From the IMG/VR virus record IMGVR_UViG_638341084_000020: a DNA stretch of 30,307 nucleotides; one strand, given 5' to 3'. A program made the translations under genes and the position numbers. Positions 4,318-7,300 of this stretch are shown one piece after another. This stretch comes from a virus (Duplodnaviria; Heunggongvirae; Uroviricota; Caudoviricetes). The stretch's first letter is position 1. Each line of letters starts with the position of its first letter. Under the pieces are notes generated by a model. The model worked only from the letters and a program-made list of their open reading frames with translations, had not been told where the DNA came from and did not search any database.

Positions 4318-7300
4318 TCAGCTGATACTGATACCTGCTGTGGATTTTTTCATCACCACAACCAGCAGATCGCTGATACTGGTTGTTGGTGTCCAGTTAT
4401 TCGCTCCTGATGAAGATACGGTGAATGTCAGTGTCAGCGTCCCCTGTCCGGCAGGCATATCTATAACTGAGGAAAATACGCCCTGAGCATCCGTCGTGGA
4501 CTGATTAAAAATCTCCTGACCATTGCGGGTCACTCTTAACCGGCAGGTTGAATACCAGTATGACTGTTGGTTATTACTGTTGAAATTCTCATGCTTACCA
4601 CCGCGGAATAACACTGGCGGTATCATGACCTGCCGGTCAAATTTCTGATCATCACTGATTCTTACCGTGATGGTGCCACTGGCATAAGTGCTCGTGCGGG
4701 GGAAAGACTTGCTGACCGTTTTGACAATATCACCTTCAATCTGGTTGGCTGACAGTTTCCCCTTAATCTGACAGTTCTCATTAATCGTGACGTTGTTGAG
4801 CGTCCCTGAGTTCGCATTCACACTGCCACTGATATCCGCATTTTTAGCGGTCAGCTTTCCGTCTGATGTCAGGGAAAATACCGGAGGGCTGCCACCGCTG
4901 GTAATGGTGGGGGCTGTCAGGCGCTTCAGGAACACGTCGTTCATGAATATCTGGTTGCCCTGCGCCACAAACATCGGCGTTTCATTCCCGTTTGCCGGGT
5001 CAATAAACGCGATACGGTTAGCGGCAACCAGAAACTGGCTCAGCTTGCCTTCCTCCGTGTCCTCCATGCTGAGACCAATACCCGCGACATAATGTTTGCC
5101 GTCTTTGGTCTGCTCAATTTTGACGCCCCACATGGCATTCCATTTATCGTTAGCGTCCTTCCACTCTTTCGAAAACTCATCCAGTCTGCTGGCGTTATCC
5201 TCCGTCAGATCAACTTTTTCCAGCAGCTCTTTACCGAGATGGGATTCGGTTATCTTGCCTTTGAAAAAATCCAGGTAACCTTCCGCATCATCGCTCGCCC
5301 GACCGACGGCCTCCACGAATGCCGATTTGCCAACGGTGTTCACACTGCGGATATAAAAGTAATAATCATGGCCCGGTTTGATATTGATACTGGCGGCTAT
5401 CCAGTACAGCCCCGTGCCAAGGTAGCGGGCTGTGGTTTCAACCTGCCTGATATCGGTAATCCGCTTTTCCGAGAACCAGAACTCAAACTGTACCGTCGGA
5501 TCATAAACGGCAAGATGCGGCGTTGCGGTTATCTGAAAATAGCCCGGCGTCAGCTCAATCCGCGACGGTGCTGCCGGTGCGGCAATCCGGAACGATACCG
5601 ACGCCGGATCGCCCTGCTGCCCCCAGGCATTTGCCGCCCGGACTGTCAGCCTGTAGTTCCCCAGCGCCAGTTGCGTGAAGCGGTATGTGGTTTCCGTCGT
5701 CCGGGCCGTGCTGACCAGCCGCTCACTGCCGTCATCCGCTGCCACGGTCAGGCGAAGCATAAAGCTCACGCCCTTCACCACCTTCGGCGTGTCCCAGCGC
5801 GCCAGCACCTGATATTCCCCGCTGTCTGCGGTGACTTCGGCAGTCAGGTGCTGCACCGCGGGCGGCGTGACGCCATTCACCGTGCCGCTCTGGTCGCCGT
5901 CAAAGTGCGCCCCGTTATCCACGATGGCTTCTTTTTCGGGTACATGCTGCACGGCGGTGATGGCATACGTGCCGTCGTCGTTCTCACGGACACTCACGCA
6001 GCGGAACAGGCGCTGGCGCAACGTCGGCAACTTCAGCCCCCATACGCTGTATTCAGCAACGCCGTCAGGAACACGGCTCACTTTCACCTTCACGCCGTCG
6101 GTGACGGACTGGACCTCCACGCTGACCGGATTACCCTGCCCGTCAACCAGGCTTATCAGCGTGGTGCCGGAGGATGGCAGCGTGATTTCACGGTCGAGCG
6201 TCAGCGTCCGGGTCTGGCTGTTCACCGCCAGCACGCGACCACCGATGCTGATACCGGCATAGTCATCATCGCAGATTTCAATAACATCGCCCGGCACATG
6301 GCGAAGCCCTTCTGCGCCCACGCTGAAATCCACGGTCTGCGTTTCCAGCAGTTCCGTTTTAATCAGCCACAGCCCGGCTCGGTGTGCCTGCCCCCGACTG
6401 GTACAACCAAAGGCATCCATCTTCGTGACATTACGGCCGTAACGGGCAATGGCCTGCGTATCTTCAACAAGCTCTGTCGCCGTCTCCCAGCCGTTATTCG
6501 GGTCAATCCAGTTCACCTCAACGGCATTATGGCGGTCCTTCAGGGCGCTGAAGCTGTAGCGGAACGGCGCACCATCATCCGGCATCACCACATTACTGCG
6601 GTTATAGGTCCACACCTTATCTGATGGTCGGTCCTGCACGAACGTCAGCGTCTGCCCGTTCCATACCGGCATACAGCGCATCGCCGAGCAGAAATCACTG
6701 AGCACATCCCACGCCTTACGCTGTGTGGTCAGGTACGCATTACAGGTAATGCGCGGCTCCGTGCCGCCAAAGCCGTCCGGCACCGACTGGTCGCAGTACT
6801 GGCCGATGACATACAGCGCCCATTTATCCACATCCGCCGCACCAAGACGTTTCCCCATGCCGTAGCGCGGATGGGTCAGCATATCCCACAGACACCAGGC
6901 CGGGTTGTTGCTGTATGCCGGTTTTAACGTTCCGTCCCAGATACCGCTGTATTGCCGCGTCTGCGGGTTATAGTTCGACGGCACCTGCAGAATACGCCCG
7001 CGAAGATGATAATTACGGCTCACCTGCTGGCTGCCGAACTGCTCCGAATCCACCTTTACGCCGACCAGTGCCGTGTTCGGGTAGCCCTGTTTCACATCGA
7101 TGATTTCGGTGTATGACGACCAGAGCGTTTTGTTCTGCAGCTGGTCTGTGGTGCTGTCCGGCGTCATTCTGCGCATCCGGATATTAAACGGGCGCGGCGG
7201 CAGGTTATCCACCACCACCGAGGCCAGATACTGCGAGGTGGTTTTGCCCTTAATGGTGATGTCTTTTTCCGTCACCCAGCCACCATTACGCTGTATCTGA

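Follow-up and report, generated by a model that had tools for sequence, protein, structure and literature searches.

The window, a stretch of 30,307 nucleotides of tailed-phage DNA (IMG/VR record IMGVR_UViG_638341084_000020), is 100% identical to a chromosomal prophage in E. coli FDAARGOS_1059 and in the O111:H2 strain 12A, and prophages of O103:H2 and other STEC are 99.9% identical to it. In the identical genome, PGAP gives the gene order L, K (C40 peptidase), I, gpJ, Lom, stf and tfa, colinear with lambda, and all head and tail genes from nohD through stf are annotated as intact. Around the 3′ end of J the following features were identified.

4318..7716, minus strand: gene J (tail tip attachment / central tail fibre protein), an intact ORF of 1132 aa, from the ORF list and its translation
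4792..7716, minus strand: lambda-like J body (aa 1-975), made up of the hub domains, the FNIII/Ig domains, the helical shaft and the beta-prism fibre; identity to lambda J 96.6% (aa) and 95.5% (nt)
4321..4791, minus strand: divergent C-terminal module (aa 976-1132), the putative receptor-binding module of the A8/OmpC class; identity to lambda 43% (aa) and 53% (nt); stop codon at 4318-4320
4687..4692, minus strand: codons 1009-1010 (Ser-Thr; Asn-Ser in A8), the sole positions at which the module departs from A8; the two forms are a natural dimorphism, and the segment around them is variable and bears indels
3780..4760, minus strand: block that is not lambda-like at the DNA level (J tip, terminator and most of lom), from blastn of the window against lambda 14000-23500
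4281..4300, minus strand: terminator-like hairpin and T-run directly past J, from a pattern scan; a terminator is annotated at the equivalent site in phages 21 and 434
3652..4251, minus strand: lom (Ail/Lom outer-membrane beta-barrel; PGAP Ail/Lom family), its 5′ three quarters in the same mosaic block as the J tip

The J product has the length of lambda J (NC_001416 15505-18903, also 1132 aa) and carries the label gpJ in the PGAP annotation. The curated NCBIfam model NF049904 lambda_TipJ covers aa 1-1132 with 2337 bits against a cutoff of 1950, placing the protein within that family. Pfam domains FNIII-A_GpJ, Phage-tail_3, Ig_J, Ig_J_second, Phage_Tail_Tip and Ig_GpJ_C were found along its length, the last of these (PF12421, “C-terminal receptor binding domain”) at aa 1009-1132 with 124 bits against a gathering cutoff of 26.2 (E = 5.5e-36). 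The domain names used for the body of J follow Ge & Wang 2024 (PMC11101478) and Pfam.

Identity to lambda J is very uneven along the protein. BLASTP returned 1012/1136 identities (89% overall), and splitting a global alignment after residue 975 gave 942/975 identical positions (96.6%) for aa 1-975 and 70/162 columns (43.2%), with small indels, for aa 976-1132. The DNA behaves in the same way, with 95.5% identity over nt 1-2900 of the gene and 53% over nt 2941-3399; a scan in 60-nt windows puts the step, from 0.85-0.95 down to 0.4-0.68, near nt 2910-2970 (aa ~971-990). A drop that takes place within ~60 nt is far too sharp for chance drift. An earlier, sequence-only reading of this DNA had described J as matching lambda J in length and along most of its sequence, with the last ~150 residues differing, and the alignments bear out both statements: identity to lambda over the C-terminal ~150 aa is 43.2-43.5%, well below 95%, and the placing of the divergence at 4318-4800 was accurate (divergent codons 4321-4791). 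One detail of that reading did not hold, since the first stretch that it quoted as divergent ([19 protein letters not shown], aa 940-958) is part of the conserved region and carries three substitutions relative to lambda. The true divergence begins after ...NVTINENC (aa ~976-983). Conserved anchors flank the module, upstream ...[23 protein letters not shown] and at the extreme end ...[18 protein letters not shown].

The region that departs from lambda continues past the end of J. By blastn, lambda homology stops at window position 4760 and restarts at 3779, inside the 3′ end of lom, and the Lom protein is 45% identical to lambda Lom, with lambda homology back only for the last ~130 nt of the gene. 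These limits, together with the identity of Lom, indicate that the exchanged block comprises the J tip, the hairpin and about three quarters of lom. Judging from these comparisons, the J tip was evidently swapped by recombination, as one block with most of lom. Terminator-like hairpins lie on both sides of lom (4300-4281 and 3625-3604).

We compared the divergent tip with J proteins of other phages, among them lambda, 434, HK97, phi80 and N15, the set that the sequence-only reading had put forward for alignment. The last 157 aa of J are 98.7% identical to A8 gpJ (PDB 9wca/9wcb) and to phage 2H10, 80.9% to phage 21, 77.1% to BP-4795, 62.1% to Stx2a_WGPS2, 43.9% to 434 and 43.5% to lambda, and BLASTP of these residues against J of HK97, N15 and phi80 returned no significant similarity. 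In a multiple alignment of the tips, anchors are conserved at both ends of the module and the last 28 aa are identical or nearly so in four classes, with the variation clustered in three or four segments that bear the indels. The module is thus one cassette of the known mosaic series of J tips. Phage 21 supplies the closest distinct natural class: its C-terminal 28 aa are identical to those of the window tip, whereas ~30/157 positions differ, mostly in the variable segments, and its reported native receptor is a different one, LamB. The 434 tip, too, takes the place of the lambda tip from the same junction onward and is likewise reported to bind OmpC (PMC11101478, introduction), but at its level of identity it forms a separate class. 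The lambda receptor-binding domain (RBD; PDB 8xcj/8xck) belongs to the same Ig_GpJ_C family and sits at the same position on a near-identical fibre; by analogy, the trimeric Ig-like fold, the distal loops and the trigger mechanism are presumed to be shared. Unlike the window tip, it binds LamB, and the two are 43% identical with indels in three variable segments. We also looked for signs of a FhuA-type tip, namely similarity to N15 gp21 or phi80 J and a downstream cor, and found neither, the genes downstream being lom and stf and not gp22/gp23/cor.

The relationship to A8 ties the module to a receptor. Brödel et al. (Nature 2024; PMC11338833) grafted A8, which derives from a natural E. coli prophage J, onto lambda J with the fusion at lambda aa 964. 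Downstream of this residue, 166/168 positions are identical between A8 and the window J, which share the length of the module and its junction with the lambda-like fibre; the only differences are S1009N and T1010S, A8 having N and S where the window has S1009 and T1010. The A8 DNA in the supplement of PMC11338833 matches the 3′ end of the window J, including the TNSY codons, save for machine-reading errors and the two codons. When PDB chain 9wca_J (“A8 gpJ 713”) was compared with the last 210 aa of J, five differences were found, two in the natural A8 part and three (aa 943, 946 and 951) in the lambda-derived part of the chimera. The upstream three reflect the different bodies: A8 is an engineered chimera on a lambda J body, whereas the body of the window J is natural, has 96.6% identity to lambda and carries S943, V946 and S951 before the junction.

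A8 was screened in a ΔlamB recipient and gave efficient delivery into MG1655 ΔlamB ΔompC with plasmid-borne OmpC variants, accepting both MG1655 and EDL933 OmpC; a second chimera, 1A2, accepts different OmpC variants (PMC11338833). In the structure 9wcb the A8 gpJ713 chain is accompanied by “Outer membrane porin C”; the entry bears the title 'Open state of A8 gpJ 713 central tail fiber with OmpC G17 from E. coli EDL933', and the closed state is deposited as 9wca. The proposal of the sequence-only reading that this phage may use a receptor other than LamB therefore gains support from the 98.7% identity of the last 157 aa to the module of a known OmpC binder. We consider it very likely, for the allele with S1009/T1010, that the window J tip uses OmpC instead of LamB. 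Comparisons by DNA and tblastn suggest that 1A2 is nearest to the Stx2a_WGPS2 class, with its supplement sequence machine-read with indels, and we do not rely on this placement. A 2026 receptor-prediction preprint was considered and set aside, as it deals with Drexlerviridae GpJ and not with lambda-type tips.

At 99% identity to a solved chain, an Ig-like gpJ RBD fold for the window tip is near-certain. A single-sequence AF2 model of aa 965-1132 is all-beta but of low confidence (pLDDT 55.9), and we took from it no more than the strand/loop pattern and the titles of Foldseek matches, the best of which were 9wcb, 9wca, 8xck and 8xcj (TM 0.57-0.63). In this low-confidence model (pLDDT 56), residues 1009/1010 probably lie in the loop between the first two strands of the RBD. 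In the alignment of tips they fall in the first variable segment, which is the most indel-rich.

The Ser-Thr and Asn-Ser forms are both widespread sub-alleles, with the former in the window and many Stx phages and the latter in A8 and 2H10. An exact 48-mer of the Ser-Thr form was found in 662 E. coli records and that of the Asn-Ser form in 835, and about 12-16% of the complete E. coli genomes have each sub-allele. Genomes with the Ser-Thr form often hold more than one copy of it (median 2, maximum 8), which agrees with the large number of lambdoid prophages in STEC. It seems doubtful, though conceivable, that the two sub-alleles differ in the OmpC variants they accept, or even in the porin, and that the dimorphism marks an ongoing arms race between phages and OmpC in STEC prophages. 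If they do differ, the host range of the window allele would not be predictable from the A8 data.

In lambda, four distal loops of the trimeric Ig-like RBD enter the LamB trimer and the RBDs splay apart; the change is passed on via the beta-prism fibre and the helical shaft, and this relay frees the FNIII strings and opens the tail tip (Ge & Wang, PMC11101478). In the window J, the last 157 aa would form an exchangeable receptor-binding domain of the A8 class, Ig-like and trimeric in the fibre, that recognises the trimeric porin OmpC. By analogy with lambda gpJ on LamB and with the solved A8 gpJ–OmpC complex, the distal loops of the three RBDs would enter the OmpC trimer at its extracellular face, and the splaying of the RBDs would be relayed up the beta-prism fibre and helical shaft until the tail tip opens for DNA ejection. 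Because the relay parts of J are ~97% lambda-like, the same trigger mechanism, here set off by OmpC, is most likely, and we infer that the signal is transmitted in the window J as it is in lambda.

We searched collections of phages, complete E. coli genomes and the PDB. Among 50,697 phage records, tblastn found 44 with at least 95% identity over the last 160 aa of J, several of them 100% identical, including Stx2a_JNE090279, PPyecE_EH1910 and Stx1_121427. The viable phages 2H10, Turner, PhiR30_1 and PhiR70_1, as well as Stx phages, carry the same module at 98.8-100%. In a group consisting of 2H10, Turner, PhiR30_1, YYZ-2008, CP-1639 and many Stx1a-, Stx2a- and Stx2c-converting phages, the 3′ 543 nt of J are 98-99% identical to the window and the last 160 aa 98.8-100%; the group differs within itself, some members having the Asn-Ser and some the Ser-Thr sub-allele. 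In PhiR30_1 and Turner the whole of J is 96.4% identical to the window J at the nucleotide level. In the set of 5426 complete E. coli genomes, the 460-nt divergent piece was matched in 2851, with up to 10 matching places per genome and a best match of at least 99% nt in 1042 records. These counts place the module among the commonest J tips in E. coli. The searchable literature reports no receptor for 2H10, Turner, the PhiR phages, YYZ-2008, CP-1639 or the Stx phages, and our literature search returned nothing on the receptors of the PhiR phages or on PA-2/Lc. The module does not represent a new receptor specificity: it is common, has been sequenced many times, has been functionally tested and has been solved on its receptor. 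The finding is accordingly real but ordinary.

Three further genes of the prophage were noted.

27068-28165, plus strand: OmpC-family porin, intact; 99.2% aa identity to Lc of the lambdoid phage PA-2 (J02580)
672-3593, minus strand: side tail fibre gene (stf), intact, 973 aa; the lambda PaPa copy is split into orf-401 and orf-314
98-672, minus strand: tail-fibre assembly gene (tfa), frameshifted; a PGAP pseudogene, given in the ORF list as 114-, 119- and 77-aa pieces

From nohD to quuD (22216-28773) the window shares 97-98% identity with DLP12, a cryptic prophage of K-12, and in the identical genome the prophage adjoins ompT, as DLP12 does. K-12 is without ~21.7 kb between the terminase and tfa (window ~527-22215), which holds all head and tail genes including J. 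The porin gene corresponds to nmpC of K-12; IS5 has disrupted the K-12 copy, and the window holds the gene intact. We conclude that the prophage is an undeleted lambdoid of the DLP12/PA-2 type carrying the lc porin. PA-2 adsorbs to OmpC, and production of Lc in its lysogens lowers OmpC, which would fit an OmpC-type tip. The link of the prophage to PA-2 rests on this use of OmpC and on the match of the porin to J02580. A porin that possibly displaces OmpC, in a phage with a probable OmpC tip, suggests superinfection exclusion. We considered an exclusive association of the lc porin with the OmpC-type tip and rejected it, because the same porin is found with tips of the A8 class, 434/lambda-like tips (~45% to the window tip), the 2G7b class (61%) and 21-like tips.

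The distal 245 aa of stf share 69% identity with lambda orf-314, indels being present in the His-rich GAHTHS repeats, and lambda segment 20558-20805 matches three places in stf, indicating internal repeats. The Stf of Ur-lambda is said to bind OmpC, and on that basis the stf fibre and the J tip might target the same porin. With tfa frameshifted, the side fibres may not assemble. An Rfam scan of the window matched IS009 only (RF02111; 132-330, minus strand, 224 bits, full length, inside the frameshifted tfa and overlapping coding sequence) and returned no regulatory RNA near J or the porin. Just beyond the left end of the window, beside the tfa/stf end, lies a recombinase-family (invertase-like) gene (L002:5410-6000), with a further partial tfa fragment 2 kb away from it; the two may be the remnant of an invertible tail-fibre segment.

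Three other accounts of the tip were weighed against the use of OmpC. The tip could bind LamB, alone or along with OmpC, so that the receptor would be unchanged despite the divergence. Phage 21 is the model for this: its RBD, only ~44% identical to that of lambda and far closer to that of the window, nevertheless uses LamB natively. One J mutation is enough to add the use of OmpC, and OmpF follows after OmpC, with one or a few J mutations in all (PMC11336670; bioRxiv 10.1101/2023.04.13.536812). Receptor choice in this family of tips can thus hinge on very few residues, and two residues, both within a variable segment, separate the window allele from A8. However, the window tip is far closer to A8 than to phage 21, from which it departs at ~30/157 positions, and A8 was both selected and tested in ΔlamB recipients, depended on plasmid-borne OmpC and was solved bound to OmpC. 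We therefore regard recognition of LamB as unlikely. That the tip recognises some other outer-membrane protein, for example OmpF or FhuA, is hardly credible: lambda-family tips can evolve the use of OmpF by a few mutations, but the module does not resemble J tips of the FhuA type (N15, phi80), stands upstream of genes that do not include cor, and is nearly identical to a tip with demonstrated dependence on OmpC.

The remaining account holds that the prophage is defective and J no longer used, leaving the tip a functionless relic. The frameshift in the tail-fibre assembly gene beside stf, an internal stop in a KilA-N gene of the identical genome and the cryptic state of the K-12 relative DLP12 are all in keeping with decay. 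Against this stand the intact 1132-aa ORF of J among intact head and tail genes and the presence of its RBD in Stx phage records (100% identity) and in isolated plaque-forming phages (98.8%), which make a relic very improbable. Lambda is itself viable without side fibres. Recognition of OmpC by a working tip thus remains the reading that we favour.

Since the J tip decides which cells a lambdoid phage infects, naming the cassette predicts host range and the routes by which hosts may become resistant. In this family of prophages, many Shiga-toxin phages among them, entry is likely to proceed by way of OmpC. Such a receptor bears on the spread of Stx phages and on the engineered lambda particles that already use the module.
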